Part shown: positions 1-13,672 of the stretch, piece by piece
Numbering within the stretch: the first letter of the stretch is position 1
Layout of the letters: every line of letters begins with the position of its first letter
Origin: a virus
Strand: one strand, 5' to 3'
UHGV virus genome: UHGV-0097017
Length of the DNA stretch: 13,822 nt
The notes under the pieces: generated by a model
The model's database searches: none
What the model saw: only the letters and a program-made list of their open reading frames with translations
What the model was told of the DNA's origin: nothing
Position numbers and translations under genes: made by a program

Positions 1-171
1 CAGGAACTACGCCAGAAGGCATTAGAAGCGTTCTATGACGCATTTGAACTTAGCCGCATTGAACCAGGCACAACAGCCAGAATAGCGATAAAAGGCGACC
101 TGATGATAGTGATGTTCAGACAGGAGAAACCAAATGACAGAACAGACGATGACAAATCGCGAACTTGTTGA
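1..171 (+). CDS. Possible 3' end of an upstream gene (5'-partial); frame 1 is open from the window edge to TGA at 169-171
   Basis: Only frame open from position 1; the other two forward frames hit stops within 40 nt. It overlaps the next start by 38 nt, which is long, so coding status is uncertain. Confidence 0.25.
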   Translation, partial: QELRQKALEAFYDAFELSRIEPGTTARIAIKGDLMIVMFRQEKPNDRTDDDKSRTC

Positions 172-358
172 TGCCGCGATTGAACTTGCTGGCGATTTTT
201 ATTCCATGATGGGTTACGAGCATCGACCTGGTTTTAAGTATTGGGAGTCACCGCATCCGCAAGAACAACAGGTGTTTGAAATGGCCTGCCGTGCTTTTGA
301 GGTTATTCGCGGTTCTGATGTGATGGAGGCCGTTGCCGACTTGGAGGATGAAGAGTGA
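134..358 (+). CDS. Small acidic hypothetical phage protein (74 aa)
   Basis: ORF with AGGAG Shine-Dalgarno at 122-126 placed 7 nt before ATG 134. Its stop overlaps the next start (GTGA at 355-358). No motif recognised. Confidence 0.6.
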   Translation: MTEQTMTNRELVDAAIELAGDFYSMMGYEHRPGFKYWESPHPQEQQVFEMACRAFEVIRGSDVMEAVADLEDEE

Positions 359-666
359 GCATCATTAAAGAAATGCCGGTAGAACGTGATGAATATGGCT
401 GCTGGACACATCCGGAGTATGAGAAGTTTTGCGCAGGTCGTGAATATATTTCCACTGAGGAATTTGACGCCTGGATGAAGGAAAATAATCTTCAGTGGAC
501 TATTCGCAGTATGGATGAAGATGATTTTGATCTGGACGCAGCTGGTCCCGATATTGCCGCCTGGGAACCGGAGCGACCAGAGGGTGAAGGCTGGTTTGTT
601 GGCTCTATTCATGACACTGAAGATGGTCCAGTTTGTATCTGGCTGCGGGAGAAGGTTGCCGCATGA
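355..666 (+). CDS. Hypothetical phage protein (103 aa, acidic)
   Basis: GTG start overlapping the upstream stop, with GGAGG at 342-346. An alternative ATG lies at 373. Its stop overlaps the phosphatase start (ATGA at 663-666). No motif recognised. Confidence 0.55.
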
Positions 667-1355
667 TCCAGACTATGCATGAAGTGAATTTATATAGCCG
701 TATTGATGGTTCTGGCTACAGAAACATATGGGTTGTTGGTGATCTGCATGGTTGCTACACCAGACTGATGTCCGAACTCCATCGTGTGGATTTTGACCCG
801 GCGCAGGATTTACTGATATCGGTTGGCGACCTTATCGATCGCGGTACTGAAAATGTCGAATGTCTGGAACTATTGCAGATGCCCTGGTTCAGGGCAGTAA
901 TGGGGAACCATGAGCGGTTGATGCTTGATGCGTTAAGTCCTGATGGCAACGTGAATAACTGGCTAATTAATGGCGGACAATGGTTCTTCATGCTGGGCAC
1001 TGATCAGGAAATATTAGCCAAGGCGCTGGTGGAGCTGGTAAAGCGTCTGCCATATATCATTGAGTTGAACACCGGGCATGAAACTATCGTTATAGCCCAT
1101 GCCGACTATCCAGGTGGAGAGTACCAGTTCGGTAAGGATGTGTCGTTTTTTGATGTTGTCTGGTCGCGCAGTCGCGTCGGTGATTCGATAGATGGCATTG
1201 GTGGAGAAATCACAGGCGCAGATCGCTTTATCTTTGGGCACACACCGGTACGAAGACCAAAAGCATACTGGAATCAGCACTACATAGACACGGGCGCGGT
1301 TTTTTGCGGAAATCTGACGCTAATGCAGGTGAAGGGAGGGCAGCTTAAAGTCTGA
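663..1355 (+). CDS. Serine/threonine protein phosphatase, lambda PPase / PrpA-like metallophosphatase
   Basis: Translation carries the calcineurin-like phosphoesterase signature GDLHG ... GDLIDRG ... GNHE and a later GHT motif. ATG 663 is preferred over the TTG at 633 in the ORF track because of the ATGA overlap and the GAGAAGG Shine-Dalgarno 7 nt upstream. Confidence 0.9.
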
Positions 1356-1381
1356 TCAAATCATTTACGCACTCAAATCAC

Positions 1382-1446
1382 GTTAGAACATTGATTTTAG
1401 TTTTCTAACATATTATTTTACCGATCGGAACAAAACAGAGTCGGTA
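1382..1446 (+). promoter_or_regulatory. Intergenic region with two inverted repeats and sigma70-like hexamers upstream of the DUF968-like gene
   Basis: GTTAGAA (1382-1388) pairs with TTCTAAC (1403-1409); TACCGA (1419-1424) pairs with TCGGTA (1441-1446). TTGATT at 1391-1396 and TATTTT at 1413-1418 are separated by 16 nt. Confidence 0.3.
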
Positions 1447-1452
1447 TGCATT

Positions 1453-2448
1453 ATGAGTGCAATAATCACCCCATATGTCGTAAATGAAACTGGTGTGGCT
1501 GTCTTTCCTGTAGATAAGCCCACCAGCAATTACATCGGCGCAGGACGCCGTTTTCTTATATCCCCATTGCCGCGTGAACAGGCTGAAAACACCCCTGATG
1601 GTGTCGTTGACCTGAATTATTCACTGGTTGCCAACCAGTCACTGGCACCCTTTTTTCAAAGTGAGCGTGTATTTAACGCGTTAGGTGGTGAGGATTCTCT
1701 CGTTCACTGGGTTAGCACCAACATTCACGATTGCCAGGCGCATGATAAGCGCGATTGCAGCCACCAGCTAACCACCCATTTCTATAACGGTTCTGCCGTT
1801 CGCCTGTGCTGGAAGCATGATGCGGAATACATGATGAAGGGATACGGCAAGCTGGAAGACCAACTGTCACGGAATCGCGCCAACTGGATTATGAACTGGG
1901 CTGCCAGCGAGTTAAAACTTCCGCCAGATCGCGATCTGAGCATGGTTGAACTCACCTTTTGGGCCATTCGCCGGAATCTTAAAGACGAACTGCCTGATGA
2001 AGCTGGTCGCATTGCATTTTGTCAGCCAAAAACTGAAATCCCTACCGGTACGCTGAAAGAATCAGATATCACCTGGGAGCACAGTACCCGCGAGCTGGTG
2101 GACATAACCGCAGAGCAGATCGTCAACCTGTCTGTAGATGAGGATTCCGGCCTGCTTTATATGCGCCGACCAAAAGCGGTCCTCGGTAAAAGCCCGGCTT
2201 ATCTCCGGTTTGTGGTTTCTCGTCCGTGCATCGGATGCGGTGGCAAAGTTAACCACCCGTTCATGTACCGCGCCCGCTCGTTAAACGAACACGACCGCTG
2301 GGCTGTTCCTCTTTGCGATGACTGCGCCAGAAGCGCAGAAAACGATGTTCGGGCATGGGAAAAAGCACATGGCATACGCCTTTACGTAGCCGCTAACCAG
2401 CTTTTTGACTTCGCCATCGAGCGCGGAGTGATCACGTTCAATAACTGA
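1453..2448 (+). CDS. DUF968-like phage protein with C-terminal Cys cluster (331 aa)
   Basis: Long ORF following a 97-bp intergenic gap. C-terminal CIGCGG ... PLCDDC arrangement suggests a zinc-binding module. Family assignment is from recalled resemblance to enterobacterial prophage DUF968 proteins, not a search. Confidence 0.6.
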   Translation: MSAIITPYVVNETGVAVFPVDKPTSNYIGAGRRFLISPLPREQAENTPDGVVDLNYSLVANQSLAPFFQSERVFNALGGEDSLVHWVSTNIHDCQAHDKRDCSHQLTTHFYNGSAVRLCWKHDAEYMMKGYGKLEDQLSRNRANWIMNWAASELKLPPDRDLSMVELTFWAIRRNLKDELPDEAGRIAFCQPKTEIPTGTLKESDITWEHSTRELVDITAEQIVNLSVDEDSGLLYMRRPKAVLGKSPAYLRFVVSRPCIGCGGKVNHPFMYRARSLNEHDRWAVPLCDDCARSAENDVRAWEKAHGIRLYVAANQLFDFAIERGVITFNN

Positions 2449-2464
2449 TGAGGTGGATCAAAAA

Positions 2465-3187
2465 ATGAAAGAACGTGGGATGATTTTTAACGATGAGATG
2501 GTCAGGGCCATCCTCGAAGGAAGGAAGACGCAGACTCGCCGACCTGTAAAAAATGTCAGGGCCGATAACTGCCTAGTTATCCGTAAACCGACAAAGAAAC
2601 GCAATGGTGTCTATACCCACGTTATGGATGCACCTGAACATGGTTTATGCCCGTTCGGTAACGTTGGTGATCGCATATGGGTCCGTGAGGCGTGGGCGAT
2701 ATTAGGCAATGAGGATGGTTGCAGTGTGGACTGGAACGACAACCTTTGTCGTGGCGATGAGAAGAACGCAGCAAGGATTTATCGGGCCAGTTGTGAGCAA
2801 AAGCCTGGTGATTACGGTTTGTGGTCGATATCCGATGATGCCGACTGGAAACCTCACACTGTGAATGAAAAGTTTGATGGCGGGTGGCGTCCATCAATTC
2901 ACATGCCGCGATGGGCATCACGCATCCTGTTGGAAATTACCAACGTGCGCGTTGAGCGGTTGAACGATATCAGCGAATGCGATGCAAGGGATGAGGGCGT
3001 TCAGCCTGCTGGAAGTTTGCTTCCTGATCACCCGGGAACATTCCTAACTCCCAAGGGAGATTTCGCAATGGCCAAGGTTGCGTTCCAGCGCCTGTGGGAA
3101 TCCATCTATGGTGAAGAATGCTGGAACGCTAATCCCTGGGTGTGGGTAATCGAGTTTGAGCGTATTCAGGGGGCAACCAGTGAGTGA
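2465..3187 (+). CDS. ASCH-like (PUA-fold) domain protein, ~240 aa
   Basis: N-terminal MIFNDEMVRAILEGRKTQTRR matches the GxKTxTxR signature of ASCH domains such as E. coli YqfB. ATG 2465 has GAGGTGG 9 nt upstream; the ORF track GTG at 2453 is an alternative. Stop overlaps the next start. Confidence 0.6.
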   Translation: MKERGMIFNDEMVRAILEGRKTQTRRPVKNVRADNCLVIRKPTKKRNGVYTHVMDAPEHGLCPFGNVGDRIWVREAWAILGNEDGCSVDWNDNLCRGDEKNAARIYRASCEQKPGDYGLWSISDDADWKPHTVNEKFDGGWRPSIHMPRWASRILLEITNVRVERLNDISECDARDEGVQPAGSLLPDHPGTFLTPKGDFAMAKVAFQRLWESIYGEECWNANPWVWVIEFERIQGATSE

Positions 3188-3440
3188 GTCAAAATGCCAA
3201 ATTAATGGCAACAAGATAGAACCGTGCGCGGCGTTGACGCAATCCCTGGAGCATGACGCTGAATACACGACGCGAAAAGGTCTGCTGAAATACAAAATCT
3301 ATAACCATGCATTAATTCATTCACAAGACCTGATCATGCTGCGGTCTGGTGAATTTTCTAAATCGCCTATTCGAGTTTCATTTTGCCCGTTCTGTGGTGA
3401 AAGTCTGAAAACGTGGGAAGCGGAGGCAACCAGTGAATAA
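3180..3440 (+). CDS. Small Cys-containing (zinc-ribbon-like) hypothetical protein, ~86 aa
   Basis: GTG start at 3180 in a GTGAGTGA overlap with the upstream stop; the ORF track's earlier start at 3156 would overlap by 32 nt. C-terminal CPFCG motif plus two upstream Cys. Confidence 0.45.
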   Translation: MSESKCQINGNKIEPCAALTQSLEHDAEYTTRKGLLKYKIYNHALIHSQDLIMLRSGEFSKSPIRVSFCPFCGESLKTWEAEATSE

Positions 3441-4077
3441 CCGCTTTTACCTGATGTGCTTGCGTGAAACTGTGGGTAATAACGCCTCATTCCATTGCCA
3501 TAACGGCAATGGTTACAGTTCTGATATCGATCGCGCTCATGTTTACACGCTGGAAGAAGCCCAAAAAGCCTGGAATTGTGGGCGAGATATCGATCAGCCT
3601 GTTTGCGCGGATAGCGTGGATGCAATGGCAGTGTGGCACGTTGATTGCCAGTACATCCCTACAGAAAGCCTGATTGAGTCAGATTGCACTGCGTATGTGG
3701 CCTACAAAAAAGGTAGCTGGAACGGCAACGATGTTTACTGGCTTCAACACGGTGGATTGCCAACAGATGACTTCAGTAAAGCGACCATCTTTAGCGTCGC
3801 CAACAAAAACGAACCAGGAATAGTTTGGTTGCCATTTTCCATTGCTGATGCAGCAAAGCGCCGGACGTTCAATATCAATAAATTTAACCGCAGAACAATG
3901 GTTCAGGGCGCAGGTTTGGTCATGCCTGACTGGTTGAAAAAGCAGAACAGAAGAAAGAAGTCGCGAAGCGGGAAGGTGCGTTGGAATTGTCCGCATTGCG
4001 GAAAAATCACCTGGCAGTACAGCCCATATGATTTTGAAGGCTGTCGTGATTACAACTGTGAAGGATGGCGAGAATGA
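3433..4077 (+). CDS. Hypothetical protein with C-terminal CxxC...CxxxxC zinc-ribbon (214 aa)
   Basis: GTG start 3433 overlapping the previous stop. C-terminus carries CPHCGK followed by CRDYNCEG, preceded by a basic KKQNRRKKSRSGK stretch. Confidence 0.6.
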   Translation: MNNRFYLMCLRETVGNNASFHCHNGNGYSSDIDRAHVYTLEEAQKAWNCGRDIDQPVCADSVDAMAVWHVDCQYIPTESLIESDCTAYVAYKKGSWNGNDVYWLQHGGLPTDDFSKATIFSVANKNEPGIVWLPFSIADAAKRRTFNINKFNRRTMVQGAGLVMPDWLKKQNRRKKSRSGKVRWNCPHCGKITWQYSPYDFEGCRDYNCEGWRE

Positions 4078-4643
4078 CAATTGACTATCAGGTACTGCGT
4101 GAGGCGGCAGAAAAGGCAACACCAGACGAATGGGTCGCATTTATTTCGACGGATACTGGTACTTATGCGGTGCACACGCCCGGTGATGAACGATGTGAAG
4201 ACGTTATCAAATGGACCGGCTTTGATGGACAGAAAAATGCAGAGAACAACGCTCGTTATGTTGCCGCGTTCAACCCAAAGGTTGCTTTGGCACTACTGGA
4301 TGAACGGGAAAGAAACCAGCAATACATCAAACGCCGCGACCAGGAGAACGAGGATATTGCGCTTACGGTTGGGAAGCTGCGCGTTGAGCTTGAGGAGACA
4401 AAATCAAAACTCAACGAGCAGCGCGAGTATTACGAGGGAGTTATCTCTGATGGGTGCAAGCGTATTGCTGAACTGGAAGCGCGGGAAGTTCAATTACCGA
4501 CTCGCTACGACCTTCGATATGGACACCCGATAAATGCAGATGAGCGACAAGTCATGATACCTAAAGAAAATGGCAGTTGGCTTTACCTGATTGACCTAGA
4601 ACACGCATTACGCGTCGCTGACATTCGTATCAAAGGAGAGTGA
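4074..4643 (+). CDS. Ead/Ea22-like coiled-coil phage protein (tentative)
   Basis: ATG 4074 in an ATGA overlap with the upstream stop. N-terminal motif TIDYQVLREAAEKATPDEW and a central coiled-coil-like stretch resemble lambdoid Ea22-family proteins, from memory only. Confidence 0.5.
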   Translation: MTIDYQVLREAAEKATPDEWVAFISTDTGTYAVHTPGDERCEDVIKWTGFDGQKNAENNARYVAAFNPKVALALLDERERNQQYIKRRDQENEDIALTVGKLRVELEETKSKLNEQREYYEGVISDGCKRIAELEAREVQLPTRYDLRYGHPINADERQVMIPKENGSWLYLIDLEHALRVADIRIKGE

Positions 4644-4644
4644 T

Positions 4645-4908
4645 ATGGCCACTTTAACAAAAAAAGAACGGGCATGGTTGAATGAATTACAGGACGTTCT
4701 TGATCGCTGTCCATCACCAAAAAAAATTGGTTTTTACACCATTGGCGATAAAACCATTTACCTGTATGACCTACGCCGCATGGATGAAATCATGGAGGCT
4801 CTTGATAATCGTTCGTCGATGGATTGGTGTGTTGCTGTCCATGATATGAATGCAGGGTTTGATGAAAAGATTTTGTTCCCCTCATCAGTTGAAAGCACTG
4901 CGGGTTAA
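4645..4908 (+). CDS. Hypothetical protein (87 aa)
   Basis: Strong Shine-Dalgarno AAAGGAGAG directly upstream of ATG 4645. Lower GC than neighbours by eye. Confidence 0.6.
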   Translation: MATLTKKERAWLNELQDVLDRCPSPKKIGFYTIGDKTIYLYDLRRMDEIMEALDNRSSMDWCVAVHDMNAGFDEKILFPSSVESTAG

Positions 4909-4918
4909 GGAGTAACAC

Positions 4919-6463
4919 ATGACCACTATAACCAAAGAGCGACTGCTGACAATCAAGCAGTGGCGCGAAACATACGGACCGGGTAGCAACGTTGTACTGC
5001 CAGCAGAAGAAGCGGAAGAACTGGCACGGATTGCACTGGCATCATTGGAAGCAGATCCAGTTAAACGAGTTAACTCAGATCAGATGCACCGAGTCTGCTT
5101 AGAAGCTAATCGCTATTTAGATAAATATGACGCGATGGCGAAAGAGGTAAATAAGTTGCTTGGACGCATCGCCCCGCCAGCGCCAGTATTTAACGGCGAA
5201 TACGGTGACGCATATCAGGGCGCTCGTGAAGACCTGTCCATCTGGAAACGGCGAGCGCTTGAAGCTGATGAGCACGTTCGGCGACTGGAGCAAATCAATG
5301 ACCACATGGTGAAAGAGGCGCAGGGAGAATCACGCATGGGCGAGCCTGTAATACGTGAGCCAGCACCGGTAGTGCCTGAAGAAGCAACTCCGGAAAACGT
5401 AGAAATGCTCTCTGGCTATGTTTCAACGTACAAATTAACCGATAGCGAGCGCGATATTGCTGCCGAAATATGGAACGCCTGCCGCGCCGCCATGCTTCAG
5501 TCCGGAAACTTTCGGGAAAACAAGAATTCGTCAACCAATAATTTTCGGGAAATCGCGGAAACGTCAACCAACTATCCGGCAATTCCTAGTGAGGTGTTGT
5601 CCGCAATCCTGAAGGTTGCCAGGATTCGTGCCGATTTCGATGATTTTGACGGTGACAGGCGAGGTATCGGTGATTGTCTGGATGAGGCCGAGCAAGAGCT
5701 TATCGTTACCATTAACAAATATGCCAGTCAGTTGGCAGCAGAACCGATAGCGACTAATGACGTTCGAGAGCAAACAGCCGTTCCGCCAATACAGGCTGAT
5801 GTCGCGCAAGCAATTGAAAATCTCAAGCAGAAGTTAGTGGAATGCAATCGCTATAACTACTGCGCAGATGCAGTGAAGAACGTAGAGGATGCCTGCCGTG
5901 CTGTTAGCTATAGCCAAGCCGACAATCAGCCAGCATCTGGCAACCAGGCTGCCGAATCCAATCGCGGTAATGAGTGGACTGGCAATCCTGATATTGATAA
6001 CGCCATCATCATGCTCGACCGCATAGATACGCTGGAAAATTGCGATGATGACCGTATTGAGGCTGTTAAGGCTGTTTTGCGTAGACTGGCAGGCAACTAT
6101 CCGGATATTCCGGATAGTTCGGTGCCAGCACCAGGAAAGGGCGTCACCGGTGAACGTATCCGAATTAAGCCGCATGTTTATCGCGAACTGGTTAACCGTC
6201 TCCACGATACAGCGATCAAGTGTGCTGGCACCCAGCAATTACGAGAAAGAATTAGCCGTGTTTTGGGCGACGTTATTACACCAGATCATCATAAACAAGC
6301 CGAGAAAAGTGGCCTGGAAAGGTGTCACCTTGAGGCGGCATTAAACATTAAGCCGGGGCATACGCTTGGCATTATTGATGCACTATTGGTTCATAAGATG
6401 GCCAGGGCTTTATTGCCGCTGGTGGCTGAAAAGCATGAGGCGGACCATGCCAACGAAAGCTGA
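4919..6463 (+). CDS. Large acidic hypothetical phage protein (514 aa)
   Basis: Strong Shine-Dalgarno TAAGGAG 6 nt before ATG 4919; long uninterrupted ORF. Contains an internal ~33-bp imperfect tandem repeat (NFRENKNSSTN / NFREIAETSTN). Confidence 0.75.
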   Translation: MTTITKERLLTIKQWRETYGPGSNVVLPAEEAEELARIALASLEADPVKRVNSDQMHRVCLEANRYLDKYDAMAKEVNKLLGRIAPPAPVFNGEYGDAYQGAREDLSIWKRRALEADEHVRRLEQINDHMVKEAQGESRMGEPVIREPAPVVPEEATPENVEMLSGYVSTYKLTDSERDIAAEIWNACRAAMLQSGNFRENKNSSTNNFREIAETSTNYPAIPSEVLSAILKVARIRADFDDFDGDRRGIGDCLDEAEQELIVTINKYASQLAAEPIATNDVREQTAVPPIQADVAQAIENLKQKLVECNRYNYCADAVKNVEDACRAVSYSQADNQPASGNQAAESNRGNEWTGNPDIDNAIIMLDRIDTLENCDDDRIEAVKAVLRRLAGNYPDIPDSSVPAPGKGVTGERIRIKPHVYRELVNRLHDTAIKCAGTQQLRERISRVLGDVITPDHHKQAEKSGLERCHLEAALNIKPGHTLGIIDALLVHKMARALLPLVAEKHEADHANES

Positions 6464-6731
6464 ATTACAGGTGCGCGTAGATGAGCTTGAAAAAGAGAAC
6501 GCGAGCCTCAAAAAAATGCTGTCGCGGGCGGAAAGGGAATTATCAGGCAAATTATTGCCAGAAGAACTGCCACCAGCAGATATACCTGATCGAGTGTCCT
6601 GGTGGATGAAGTATTTCCGTGCACCGTGGGAGGCGTTTTGGTGCTACGACCATCGCAGATGGTGTGATGAACTTGATAGCAGTTTTCCCTACTTTGCGGA
6701 AGGGAACACCTGCCCTCAATGCAGGGGATAG
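6447..6731 (+). CDS. Hypothetical coiled-coil protein with C-terminal CPQC motif (~94 aa)
   Basis: ATG 6447 is preferred over the ORF-track start at 6366 because it limits overlap with the 514-aa gene to 17 nt. N-terminal ELQVRVDELEKENASLKKML heptad-like segment. Confidence 0.5.
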   Translation: MPTKAELQVRVDELEKENASLKKMLSRAERELSGKLLPEELPPADIPDRVSWWMKYFRAPWEAFWCYDHRRWCDELDSSFPYFAEGNTCPQCRG

Positions 6732-7256: not shown

Positions 7257-7646
7257 ATGGGCTTCCCTTCTCCTGCGGCGGATTATGTTGAAAGCCGTAT
7301 TTCTCTTGATCAGCAACTAATCAGACATCCTTCAGCGACCTACTTCATGCGGGCGGCAGACAGCCATCACCGTGAGGGAATATTGCAAGGTGCTTTGCTG
7401 GTGGTTGATTCCTCACTTACTCCGGTTGATGGCTCACTGCTTATATGCGCTATGGAGGGAGAATATCGCGTAAAAAGATACCGGAAGTATCCGCGCCAGC
7501 ACCTGGAGGATTTAAGCACCGGGAAGAAAGAGGCGTTACCAGTAGATGACGATGGTTACACGGGTAGTAATGCTGTTTTTGGTGTGATCACCCACATTAT
7601 CAATGACGCCAGGGGCGGTGAATTTGATGATAGTCCTGCTATATGA
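7257..7646 (+). CDS. humD: UmuD'-like S24 peptidase-fold protein (HumD-like), lacking the N-terminal arm
   Basis: Translation starts directly at the GFPSPAADYVE motif that follows the cleavage site in UmuD. Retains the Ser-containing ADSH segment, the LLVVD segment and the Lys-containing GEYRVKRY segment. 129 aa, the size recalled for phage P1 HumD. Confidence 0.85.
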   Translation: MGFPSPAADYVESRISLDQQLIRHPSATYFMRAADSHHREGILQGALLVVDSSLTPVDGSLLICAMEGEYRVKRYRKYPRQHLEDLSTGKKEALPVDDDGYTGSNAVFGVITHIINDARGGEFDDSPAI

Positions 7647-7780
7647 TTTGTTTTCAGAGAAACCATAGAGAGGCATGACTGGATCTATATCGCCCTGGCC
7701 ATTTAAATGATTCCTCCCATTAGACGCGGTTACTCACTTGAAGATAAGATGAGGTTATAATTCTCTTTTTAGGTACGCGA

Positions 7781-8203
7781 ATGAGTTCGTCTGCTTTTGT
7801 CACTGTTGTCACTGGAGTAAGCGTTTTTGTCCTAGGTCGACTCATCATCAAGGGGGTTGAGTCTTACATTTCATTCAAGGAACAGTTGGGGGAAATATCG
7901 CATCTGTTATTGTCTAACCAAGCAAAGCTATCGAATCCCCGCTCTGACTTAAAACAAGAAATCATCCATGATTTGAAAGATGCGGCAGCACAGTTACGGG
8001 TGAAGTACGAACTATTACCTTTCTATATCAAAATGTTACACATCGGTTTTCGCCTTGTTCCATCAGAAACTGAAATTCGTAAAGCGGCGCAAGAATTGAA
8101 TCTGATAGCCTCGATACATGATGGTAAAACCGGAGAGCTGCCATATGAGCACATAGCCAAGATTGGATTACTGCTCAGAATTCCAACCACTTATTCTGCT
8201 TAA
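7781..8203 (+). CDS. Hypothetical single-pass membrane protein (140 aa), low-GC moron-like gene
   Basis: N-terminal hydrophobic helix AFVTVVTGVSVFVLGRLII followed by a charged helical domain. A consensus TATAAT lies at 7756-7761. GC is visibly lower than the flanking humD and phd-doc genes. Confidence 0.6.
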   Translation: MSSSAFVTVVTGVSVFVLGRLIIKGVESYISFKEQLGEISHLLLSNQAKLSNPRSDLKQEIIHDLKDAAAQLRVKYELLPFYIKMLHIGFRLVPSETEIRKAAQELNLIASIHDGKTGELPYEHIAKIGLLLRIPTTYSA

Positions 8204-8274
8204 TCCCAGCAATTGCAAGACTGCATCTCGAGGATTTAAGGCACCAAGAAGTGGTATTCAGCATCATTAAAACC

Positions 8275-8305
8275 TATAATTGCGTACACATAACGAGCAC
8301 ACGAG
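8275..8305 (+). promoter_or_regulatory. Candidate phd-doc promoter -10 and operator region
   Basis: Consensus TATAAT at 8275-8280, immediately followed by two related elements CGTACACA (8283-8290) and GAGCACAC (8295-8302) before the GAGG Shine-Dalgarno. This is the position where an autorepressor would occlude RNA polymerase. Confidence 0.45.
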
Positions 8306-8311
8306 GTGTTT

Positions 8312-8533
8312 ATGCAATCCATTAACTTCCGTACCGCGCGCGGCAACCTTTCTGAAGTGCTCAACAATGTTGAAGCCGGGGAAGAGGTTGAAATCACCCG
8401 CAGAGGCCGTGAGCCAGCAGTAATTGTTAGCAAGGCTACTTTTGAAGCCTACAAAAAAGCGGCGCTGGATGCCGAATTTGCATCCCTGTTTGACACCCTG
8501 GACTCCACCAACAAGGAACTGGTTAACCGATAA
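8312..8533 (+). CDS. phd: Phd antitoxin (prevent-host-death), Phd/YefM family
   Basis: Translation [41 protein letters not shown]... matches my recollection of phage P1 Phd over its full 73 aa. Stop and doc start overlap by 1 nt (TAATG). Confidence 0.9.
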
Positions 8534-8913
8534 TGAGGCATATATCACCGGAAGAACTTATTGCGCTTCATGATGCGAATATAAGCCGCTACGGCGGCCT
8601 GCCGGGAATGTCAGATCCGGGTAGGGCAGAGGCCATTATCGGGAGAGTTCAGGCCAGAGTTGCCTACGAAGAGATCACCGACCTTTTCGAAGTCTCCGCC
8701 ACCTACCTGGTGGCTACGGCGAGAGGGCATATATTCAATGATGCCAATAAGCGTACCGCGCTAAACAGTGCGCTGCTATTTCTACGCCGTAACGGTATAC
8801 AGGTATATGATGATCCCGTGCTGGTGGAGCTTGCAGTGGGGGCTGCAACTGGTGAAATCCCCGTATCTTCAGTAGCGAAAAAACTACGTGAACTATATGG
8901 TTCCAATATTTGA
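8533..8913 (+). CDS. doc: Doc toxin (death-on-curing), Fic-fold kinase
   Basis: 126 aa with the Fic/Doc motif [11 protein letters not shown]; translationally coupled to phd. Confidence 0.9.
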
Positions 8914-12643: not shown

Positions 12644-13672
12644 TTACGAATCCATCAGGCGGCTATTAGCCCCCACAGACACGCCGCCACGGCGAAGATA
12701 CCGCATAAGTGTTTCCGGTTTCTTCCAGGTTCCTTCCTGCATGATCTCCACCATAGACACCTGCTTTTCAGCCATATCAATAGCGGCCCCGACGCGTGCA
12801 CTATGCCCGGTCCACGTCCGGTATCTTCCTTTGTTTGGCGTAGCATCTCTTTTATTCAGCAACACCCAGGCGTCGCTGAATATTTTCTCCATTGCAGGTG
12901 CAGTAAGGGGCGTTGTCGTGATCCTGGCCTTATTGCTACGGTGTATCGGCGGGAACAGCACTGCGTCAGGATGTTCGCGAAGCCCGGAAACATCCAGCCA
13001 GTCATTCAGCACAGCGGTAGTGCGACGGGAAAGCACCTTATCAAGCCCGGCGGCGGTCGTTATTGTCTTCGTGTGTGAAATATGTAGCGTGACAGTGTCA
13101 CCTGTTTGATCCAGATCTCCTACACGAATACGCGAGATTTCCGACATACGCATCAGCGTATTGTATGCAACAAAGAGAAAAGCCCGGTTGCGCAGGTCCA
13201 CCAGCCGTTCTGACCTGGACAACAGGACGTCGAGCAGTTTCAGATCGTCCCACCGCAGCGGTATAGCCTGGCCTGTTCGTTCGCCTTTTTCAGTTGCCGC
13301 TTCACGCCGGATGCGCCGCATAGCCAGAGAAACACTTTTATCATCCGAAAGTGGCGGAAGGCCACAATGCGAAAGCAGCATGTTAAGCATGGCGTAGTGC
13401 TTATCAATGGTGGTCGAAGCCAGATCAGCATCATGCAGCTGAAGAAAATACTCGCGGGCCATCTCTGGTGAGATCGGGAACCAGGCGAGCTGGCGAGCGT
13501 GACACCATCTCGCCCAGGAGTGAAACACTAACCGGAGATCGCGCAAAGTATTCGGCGCGTAAGCCCCCTGGTCATTCATGAACCGCATAAAGTTTTCTGC
13601 GGCCTCCTGGTACTCTTTGCCAATGTTGCGCAGAAAACCACCGGAGCTGCCAGAGATAATTAATTCACTCAT
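12644..13672 (-). CDS. Cre-family tyrosine site-specific recombinase (Cre/Dre-like), divergent from P1 Cre
   Basis: 342 aa, colinear with P1 Cre (343 aa). Shared blocks include VSLAMRRIRRE, NRAFLFVAYNTLMRMSEISRIRV, WTGHSARVGAA and IMQEGTW. Catalytic R (SRIR), K (HTKT), H-x-x-R (HSAR), W (GTW) and Y (RYLR) are all present. Overall identity to Cre is clearly partial, by eye about 40-50%. Confidence 0.9.
   Translation of the reverse strand: MSELIISGSSGGFLRNIGKEYQEAAENFMRFMNDQGAYAPNTLRDLRLVFHSWARWCHARQLAWFPISPEMAREYFLQLHDADLASTTIDKHYAMLNMLLSHCGLPPLSDDKSVSLAMRRIRREAATEKGERTGQAIPLRWDDLKLLDVLLSRSERLVDLRNRAFLFVAYNTLMRMSEISRIRVGDLDQTGDTVTLHISHTKTITTAAGLDKVLSRRTTAVLNDWLDVSGLREHPDAVLFPPIHRSNKARITTTPLTAPAMEKIFSDAWVLLNKRDATPNKGRYRTWTGHSARVGAAIDMAEKQVSMVEIMQEGTWKKPETLMRYLRRGGVSVGANSRLMDS

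Follow-up and report, generated by a model that had tools for sequence, protein, structure and literature searches.

Independently assorting gene cassettes in the accessory operon of a D6-like Escherichia coli phage-plasmid

We analysed a 13,822-nucleotide (nt) stretch of the UHGV virus genome UHGV-0097017 (hereafter the window), and in particular four consecutive genes, g1 to g4, at positions 1453-4077. A first-pass annotation made from the sequence alone had taken these genes for a translationally coupled block of putative nucleic-acid-binding proteins, which could act together as a modification-sensing or anti-restriction module rather than a morphogenetic one. We found that g1-g4 assort independently, and that their full arrangement is essentially unique to the window. 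The segment is an ordinary mosaic in which known cassette families are newly combined. It probably represents a set of independent cassettes, with products that act separately, in an early and hypervariable accessory operon carried by a D6-like E. coli phage-plasmid.

Four real genes and two overlapping junctions

All four products show strong matches to phage protein families (phrog_96, phrog_874, phrog_4030 and phrog_2457 for g1 to g4 respectively, with E values from 2e-43 to 1e-118), and they are therefore real genes. They are co-directional, as had been proposed, with the open reading frames (ORFs) and the two boundary sequences discussed below located as follows (SD, Shine-Dalgarno sequence; aa, amino acids).

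1453-2448, plus strand: g1, 331 aa, a PdcB-type DUF968 protein (Pfam PF06147, phrog_96, family alignment)
2465-3187, plus strand: g2, 240 aa, ASCH-fold, with an alternative start at GTG 2453 (fold, octapeptide, phrog_874)
3180-3440, plus strand: g3, 86 aa, with four invariant cysteines (phrog_4030, family alignment)
3433-4077, plus strand: g4, 214 aa (phrog_2457, AlphaFold2 model, family alignment)
3169-3187, plus strand: boundary 1, GGGGGCAACCA-GTG-AGTGA, containing an SD, the g3 start and the g2 stop (sequence, related loci)
3422-3440, plus strand: boundary 2, GGAGGCAACCA-GTG-AATAA, containing an SD, the g4 start and the g3 stop (sequence, related loci)

The first-pass annotation had described overlaps throughout the block, and at two of the junctions these are present as described. 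At the g2/g3 junction, GTGAGTGA at 3180-3187 contains both the GTG start of g3 (3180) and the TGA stop of g2 (3185-3187), giving an 8-nt overlap; at the g3/g4 junction, the GTG of g4 at 3433 and the TAA of g3 at 3438-3440 likewise result in an 8-nt overlap (3433-3440). The two GTG starts are preceded by SD sequences (GGGGG / GGAGG) at a distance of 6-7 nt. Both are kept in related loci, with an ATG at the same position in one locus each, which supports the start assignments of g3 and g4. The g1 and g2 genes do not overlap: a 16-nt spacer separates g1 from the ATG of g2 at 2465, or 4 nt from the alternative GTG at 2453, with the ATG preferred on the basis of SD spacing (GAGGTGG 8 nt upstream). 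The junction of g4 with the following gene, g5, also overlaps (ATGA at 4074-4077).

The four genes do not travel together

By megablast, at least 80% coverage of 1453-4077 was found in 0 of 50,697 phages and 0 of 72,556 plasmids. Among 5,426 complete E. coli genomes, 831 carry some part of the segment and two reach at least 80% coverage; one of these, H86, was examined: it carries an additional DUF1382 gene within the segment, and its ORF at the g3 position is shorter. The composition of related loci was assessed in the best-scoring IMG/VR loci, 80 of them selected by a g4 homologue and 35 by a g1 homologue, with the operon proteins placed by tblastn. Co-occurrence had been proposed by the first-pass annotation as a check on its joint module, and the outcome speaks against that module: many partial combinations were found, and never all four genes, in these 115 related viral loci (0/76 informative loci for g4 and 0/29 for g1). 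Upstream of g4, none of g1-g3 was found in 34 of the 76 loci, g2 only in 21 and g2+g3 in 17, with g1+g3 (2), g1 (1) and g3 (1) being rarer and all three never seen. Downstream of g1, the 29 loci contained g2 (8), g3 (8), g2+g3 (6) or none of the others (5), more rarely g4 (1) or g3+g4 (1), and again never all three. The variety of arrangements is unambiguous, despite a sample that is redundant and uncorrected for kinship.

A comparison with known elements reveals the origin of the individual parts. The P7 array upf86.8-upf87.4-upf87.6-upf88.3 and the D6 array orf98-orf99-orf100 consist of the same families in the same order and orientation, with the same overlapping junctions, and neither contains all four genes. 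P7 reads g2'-g3-g4-Ea22, with identities to the window of 48% for the g2-like gene, 97% for g3 and 98% for g4. D6 reads g1-g3-Ea22, without g2 and g4, at identities of 98% (ppp), 96% (g1) and 92% (g3). P1 retains a g2 remnant only, plus a 38%-identical g1 paralogue (pdcB) at a separate site. The window combines a D6-type left end (ppp-g1), a P1-type g2 allele (83-85% to PmgT) and a P7-type g3-g4 pair. The lambdoid early-left region (exo-xis / ea, including ea22) is also alike, in that g4, Ea22-like and g2 homologues occur there as small overlapping ORFs between recombination genes and xis/int, with mosaic content; the window array differs in being located in a plasmid-prophage and adjoining ppp. 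In lambda, the choice between lysis and lysogeny is influenced by ea22 and the exo-xis region.

A portable boundary sequence accompanies the downstream cassette

Across the g4 loci, the 36 nt 5' of g4 can be sorted into 12 or more unrelated classes, all of which end in the same ~15 nt, AGGAGGCA(A/G/T)CCA-GTG-A(A/G)TAA, and this ~15-nt sequence is also found 5' of g3. This conserved boundary, AGGAGGCAnCCA-GTG-A (also written AGGAGGCAnCCAGTGA), is laid out as the SD AGGAGG, then CAnCCA, the GTG start and the overlapping stop, and moves together with the downstream cassette. As a result, unrelated upstream ORFs share a C-terminal tail, ...EA(A/T)SE-stop. Within the window, the motif has 3 matches at up to 3 mismatches versus 0.38 expected, and is present at both junctions. 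Direct g2-g4 junctions without g3 are seen in two loci (L070 and L075). The overlaps are hence a property of the downstream cassette, regardless of the upstream gene. The boundary may be a portable translational-coupling and recombination linker, which would couple translation to any upstream gene by loading ribosomes and would supply microhomology for cassette exchange. A search of the open-access literature for the boundary sequences, hkaG and HK620 yielded no relevant paper.

g2 resembles YqfB-type amidohydrolases

The g2 protein is a homologue of P1 PmgT and P7 Upf86.8. An ASCH/PUA-like N-terminus had been proposed for it, and this is borne out by the fold: the AlphaFold2 model, based on 45 homologues, is confident for residues 1-76 and 152-236 and adopts the ASCH beta-barrel. 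The relation is visible by fold only. The Pfam ASCH model, which we take to be PF04266, did not match g2 at E<=0.1, the 45-sequence profile had no match among PDB sequences, and a single-sequence search likewise gave no significant match. RefSeq names some of the homologues 'ASCH domain-containing protein'.

The octapeptide GxKxx[E/T]xR is found in g2 as G19-R-K21-T-Q-T24-R-R26, with T24 invariant and G19, K21 and R26 conserved in at least 90% of the 45 homologues. The threonine ('GKTR') variant of this octapeptide defines YqfB-type enzymes (bioRxiv 10.64898/2026.02.27.708502). A MAFFT alignment with YqfB (a sequence identical to 1te7/9kyf) places K21, T24, R26 and E177 of g2 opposite K21, T24, R26 and E74 of YqfB. 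Throughout the g2 family, these catalytic positions show either no variation or at least 90% conservation. In YqfB, the Lys21Ala, Thr24Ala and Arg26Ala variants are inactive, while Glu74Ala loses 100- to 1000-fold activity (PMC6972931). As the YqfB-type active site is conserved, g2 is more likely to be an enzyme (amidohydrolase) than a passive reader of modified bases, and it looks like a putative active YqfB-type acetyl-cytidine deacetylase.

A number of features set g2 apart from E. coli YqfB and the ASCH N4-acetylcytidine (ac4C) amidohydrolases (tRNA ac4C 'erasers'). It is phage-borne, lacks a Pfam ASCH match, comprises 240 aa compared with 103 aa, and has Asp, His and Pro in place of YqfB His70, Tyr89 and Asp27. 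In addition to a helical C-terminal extension, g2 contains a conserved 75-aa Cys/His-containing insertion (residues 77-151) that breaks the barrel. Residues C86, C110, W120, H146, R149 and W150 of this insertion are invariant. Its invariant Cys and His residues, together with C62 (present in at least 90% of sequences), may make up an additional metal site. In the P7 allele Upf86.8, the insertion is shorter. We propose that g2 would be an N4-acyl-cytidine amidohydrolase, which the Cys/His-rich insertion may adapt to a macromolecular substrate such as tRNA. A bolder version is speculative, and we consider it unlikely: g2 and ~8,000 or more prophage and phage-plasmid relatives of the P1 PmgT family would be active YqfB-type amidohydrolases, produced early by temperate enterobacterial phages and stripping N4-acetyl or other N4-acyl groups from macromolecular cytidine. 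Candidate substrates would then be ac4C34 of the host elongator tRNA-Met or acylated cytosine in nucleic acid, with recognition by the insertion.

In Klebsiella and Serratia prophages, g2 homologues are located in early-left operons, between RecT/YqaJ/Gam or Rad52 and int (loci L120-L126). In Klebsiella, the neighbours of these homologues are Dam or a 667-aa C5-methylase+Dam fusion (3/4 places), DUF1382 and zf-DksA/TraR genes; in Serratia, they are a ParB-HTH (helix-turn-helix) gene and a gene of the Lar restriction-alleviation family. These methyltransferase and Lar-family neighbours are a circumstantial hint of a counter-defence setting.

Both P1 pmgT and pmgU look like remnants of a ~2.9-kilobase (kb) deletion. 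The P1 DNA matches g2 to residue ~226 and then, after 5 nt, the 3' part of g7, at 95% identity (window 2463-3141 and 6088-6428; P1, locus L003, 4810-5494 and 5500-5840). PmgT is therefore an ASCH protein without its last strand, fused to out-of-frame g7, and PmgU corresponds to what is left of g7 at its C-terminus. The intact g7 (window 4919-6463, 514 aa) is a homologue of P7 Upf89.5 and D6 orf104. Its segments match separate PHROGs (phrog_60/3323 at the N-terminus, phrog_14306 in the middle and phrog_21459 at the C-terminus), so g7 appears internally mosaic.

g1 is a DUF968 protein that has lost the His-Me catalytic residues

The DUF968-like character suspected for g1 is confirmed by Pfam DUF968 (PF06147; 153.7 bits, cut-off 27.8, E 6.4e-45), with residues 161-325 covering the full 171-position profile. 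The protein is 38% identical to P1 PdcB. Its N-terminus is a Cys/His domain (C94...C119-W-x-H); further along come the DUF968 region and, at the C-terminus, a degenerate His-Me finger. DUF968 has been grouped with DUF1364/YbcO as His-Me finger group 7 (PMC5714182), and another account sees in it an Orf/NinB-like domain joined to a zinc-finger HNH motif (PMC4118853). P1 PdcB, Qin YdfU and DLP12 YbcO share with g1 the DUF968 match, a CxxC...CxxC zinc site and a prophage/early-region location, E. coli YdfU and YbcO being DUF968/DUF1364 members of His-Me finger group 7.

An exhaustive search of 1.84 billion representative proteins identified 99 relatives of g1, and 27 full-length members were aligned. 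The motif (P/A)HH...KAHD...PLCxxCHxxLH is present in 23 of the 27. By contrast, the His-His (HH) dyad, the 7-residue Gly-rich loop and both histidines of the CH..LH helix are missing from g1, from P1 PdcB and from two close representatives, all of which keep the CxxC...CxxC. The CxxC...CxxC is of the zinc type and reads RPCIGCG...PLCDDC in g1, with cysteines that are conserved across the family alignment. No His-Me catalytic residues were found in g1, which has HPFMYR for DPHHIIGHG and CARSAEN for CHxELH. Because the dyad, loop and helix histidines are missing while the CxxC...CxxC is kept, we read g1 as a zinc-stabilised His-Me finger that is probably nuclease-dead; for the same reason, the 'HNH endonuclease' label (phrog_96, RefSeq D6) carried by PdcB/D6 orf98-type DUF968 proteins is probably mistaken where catalysis is concerned. 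The N-terminal motif CQ...(C/H)...LCW(H)HD(N), in which C94 and C119 are invariant, suggests a second metal site. For the middle region, a relation to the ssDNA-binding domain of lambda Orf (PDB 1PC6) was sought with the 27-member family profile, to which nothing in the PDB sequences matched at E<=10; g1 as a single sequence likewise had no significant match there. A role in DNA binding or recombination accessory work, without cleavage, would fit these features.

g3 and g4 carry conserved cysteine motifs

The first-pass annotation had noted Cys clusters in three of the proteins, and these are conserved in the family alignments of g1, g3 and g4 rather than incidental. Overall, three of the four domain types it had put forward (DUF968-like, ASCH-like and two zinc-ribbon proteins) agree with our analysis. 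The g3 protein is a homologue of P7 Upf87.4 and D6 orf99, and belongs to a narrow family of 67 clusters, essentially from Escherichia, Salmonella and Citrobacter (Enterobacteriaceae). Across 21 sequences, the most divergent at 49% identity, residues C6, C16, C69 and C72 never vary; they probably form a zinc site. Three family assignments were considered for g3. The match to DUF6980 (PF22400) is sub-threshold (16.5 bits versus a cut-off of 27), and 16/21 homologues gave sub-threshold matches only (best E 0.0048); matches to DUF7835 are sub-threshold as well. Lar (PF14354) was rejected: hhalign aligned 8 columns only, corresponding to the CPFCG knuckle, at 44% probability, and there is no Pfam match.

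The g4 protein, a homologue of P7 Upf87.6 and the lambdoid 'HkaG', contains an N-terminal alpha/beta domain of ~145 aa followed by a basic helix (KKQNRRKKSRSGK) and a C4 zinc ribbon, the last two making up the C-terminal 60 residues. Among 58 sequences, C186, C189 and C204 are invariant and C209 is present in at least 90%, and strands 182-185 and 192-195 flank the first knuckle, as in a zinc ribbon. The first-pass annotation had suggested fold searches for each protein; these gave the ASCH fold for g2 and, for g4, a confident AlphaFold2 model (predicted local distance difference test (pLDDT) 93.5, predicted template modelling score (pTM) 0.81), the predicted N-terminal domain having no solved structural neighbour in the PDB. 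With the g4 family profile, the rRNA-binding zinc ribbon of ribosomal protein eL43 is matched weakly yet consistently (E 0.035-0.2), which hints at nucleic-acid binding without demonstrating it.

The g4 family comprises 140 clusters, ranging from Enterobacterales to Acinetobacter, and is found in P1-like, D6-like, lambdoid and Lederbergvirus phages. Within E. coli, most copies share 95-100% identity, irrespective of whether the carrier is lambdoid, P1-like or D6-like. In a P22-like phage, g4 is located in the early-left operon between RecT and xis. It is followed in the window by an Ead/Ea22-like gene.

4065-4643, plus strand: g5, Ead/Ea22-like, whose start overlaps the g4 stop (Pfam PF13935, E 4e-40)

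In 67 of 78 loci, from lambdoid, P22-like, P1-like and D6-like elements, an Ead/Ea22 N-terminus starts within 20 nt of the g4 stop, and this g4-Ea22 association is the sole consistent neighbour link for any of the four genes. The Ea22 sequences behind g4 vary widely, with 30-93% identity to g5.

The element and its accessory operon

The gene content of the window includes ppp, humD, phd/doc and a Cre-family recombinase gene, and the window matches Escherichia phage D6 as well as ~90-kb non-mobilisable E. coli / Salmonella plasmids. In view of the near-identity of ppp and g1 to D6 orf97 and orf98 (98% and 96%), the element is a D6-like phage-plasmid: a P1 relative, in partial agreement with the P1-like element of the first-pass annotation, rather than P1 proper. 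The humD (UmuD-like) gene, the phd/doc addiction pair and the minus-strand Cre-family tyrosine recombinase gene lie at 7257-8913 and 12644-13672; the recombinase presumably resembles D6 Dre.

134-6731, plus strand: accessory operon of at least 11 tightly packed co-directional genes including g1-g4 (ORF list, junction table)
1356-1452, no strand assigned: ppp-g1 spacer, 97 nt, the sole sizeable one in the operon (sequence inspection)

Within the operon, gaps range from -17 to +16 nt with the 97-nt spacer as the single exception, and 8/10 junctions are spaced at no more than 16 nt. Since this tight packing runs across 11 genes, the four-gene 'block' has no natural boundary and is an arbitrary slice of a longer operon. 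Equivalents are D6 orf95-orf105 and the variable P1 pmgT-humD region (D6, P7 and P1 annotation). The pmgT-humD interval is one of eight hypervariable regions in P1-like plasmids, 'variable region 8' (PMC9603915), and P1 pmgT, pmgU, pmgV and pdcB were found to be non-essential for plaque formation by CRISPR interference (PMC10695390). In D6-like plasmids, ref runs divergently from the operon. In some of these plasmids (H57, CP088573.1; H100, NZ_JBYRJZ010000003.1), a PAPS-reductase-family gene fills the slot right after g1. Eight operon proteins were scanned against PADLOC (0 families at E<=0.1) and NCBIfam (nothing above threshold).

The ppp-g1 spacing is constant across 35 D6-like loci. The spacer contains a direct repeat, TCAAATCA x2 (17-nt spacing), and the inverted repeats GTTAGAA/TTCTAAC and ACTCAAATCA/TGATTTTAGT, and may be an operator or regulatory site. 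There is no consensus sigma-70 promoter in the 97 nt, and a scan of the whole window for the P1 C1 operator consensus, allowing 3 mismatches, found none.

Discussion

The available evidence favours independent cassettes over a joint device. The operon would correspond to the lambdoid early-left 'exo-xis/ea' region and, in P1, to the variable pmgT-humD interval. Its start/stop overlaps would arise from the portable ~15-nt boundary and not from a four-protein machine, and the individual products would most likely act separately on nucleic acids or nucleotides. The biochemical activities of g1-g4, like the role of the boundary, are ones that we infer. A number of points weigh against this interpretation. 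The loci sampled are the best-scoring 80 + 35 from IMG/VR, they are redundant and the counts ignore kinship. Certain pairs recur (g2-g3, g3-g4 and g4-Ea22), which leaves room for pairwise functional links. With neither a Pfam ASCH match (g2) nor a PDB profile match (g1, g2), the assignments rest on fold, motif and Pfam DUF. The YqfB comparison is a sequence alignment as opposed to a structural superposition, and one third of g2 (residues 77-151) lies outside the confident AlphaFold model (pLDDT <50). As for g1, loss of the HH dyad makes nuclease activity unlikely, yet is no proof of its absence.

The genuine start/stop overlaps at two junctions, the nucleic-acid-type features of all four proteins and the co-occurrence of g2-g3-g4 in 17/76 loci (P7-like elements) could be taken to mean that four translationally coupled proteins form one module that senses or counters nucleic-acid modification, such as an anti-restriction device. 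This is largely refuted by independent assortment, and we consider it very improbable: none of the 115 related viral loci has all four genes, no phage or plasmid record reaches >=80% coverage of the block, g4 is present without g1-g3 in 34/76 loci and D6 lacks both g2 and g4. The overlaps, moreover, follow the downstream cassette whatever lies upstream, and PADLOC is without a match. A virion-assembly role, as implied by the P1 names pmgT/pmgU, is the least plausible of the readings considered and can practically be discounted, a verdict the first-pass annotation had anticipated. Its support consists of the historical P1/D6 annotation 'putative morphogenetic function' only. P1 pmgT, pmgU, pmgV and pdcB are dispensable for plaques (PMC10695390), with pmgT itself a truncated deletion remnant missing the last ASCH strand, and the folds are those of an enzyme and zinc fingers as opposed to structural proteins. 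Also against a virion role are the occurrence of g4 in quite different kinds of phage and the location of g4 and g2 in the early-left operons of lambdoid and P22-like prophages, whose virions are unrelated.

A further explanation holds that each cassette is a separate counter-defence or host-takeover gene, with g2 removing or masking a base modification, and g1, g3 and g4 binding or inhibiting host nucleic-acid-targeting systems. Early, non-essential and hypervariable genes are typical of anti-defence islands, and the genes studied here are all three. Compatible with this are the Dam / C5+Dam genes (Klebsiella) and the ParB-HTH and Lar-family genes (Serratia) that adjoin g2 homologues, the PAPS-reductase-family cassette that occupies the same slot in some plasmids and the divergent operon neighbour ref in D6-like plasmids. 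Such support amounts to guilt by association alone. No homology to characterised anti-defence proteins was found in the PADLOC and Pfam scans, g3 can be set apart from Lar, with which it aligns over the 8-residue CPFCG knuckle only, and PdcB is conserved, not variable, in P1-like plasmids (PMC9603915). We therefore see individual counter-defence roles as possible but on the unlikely side, and prefer the reading of independent cassettes with separately acting products.

The main value of this finding is a negative one: tight overlaps in phage accessory operons should not count as evidence of joint function. The boundary offers a concrete example of cassette swapping in which translational coupling is retained behind unrelated upstream genes. 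The g4 protein, a structurally unmatched zinc-ribbon protein tied to Ea22, constitutes a testable lead, as does the probably nuclease-dead PdcB subgroup. As for g2, the 'putative morphogenetic' proteins of the PmgT family appear to be ASCH enzymes with an intact YqfB-type active site, which would link phages to ac4C turnover. This site provides a direct biochemical assay for a large family of uncharacterised phage proteins and, if the proposed activity is true, the g2 family would be a phage-encoded RNA or DNA modification 'eraser'.

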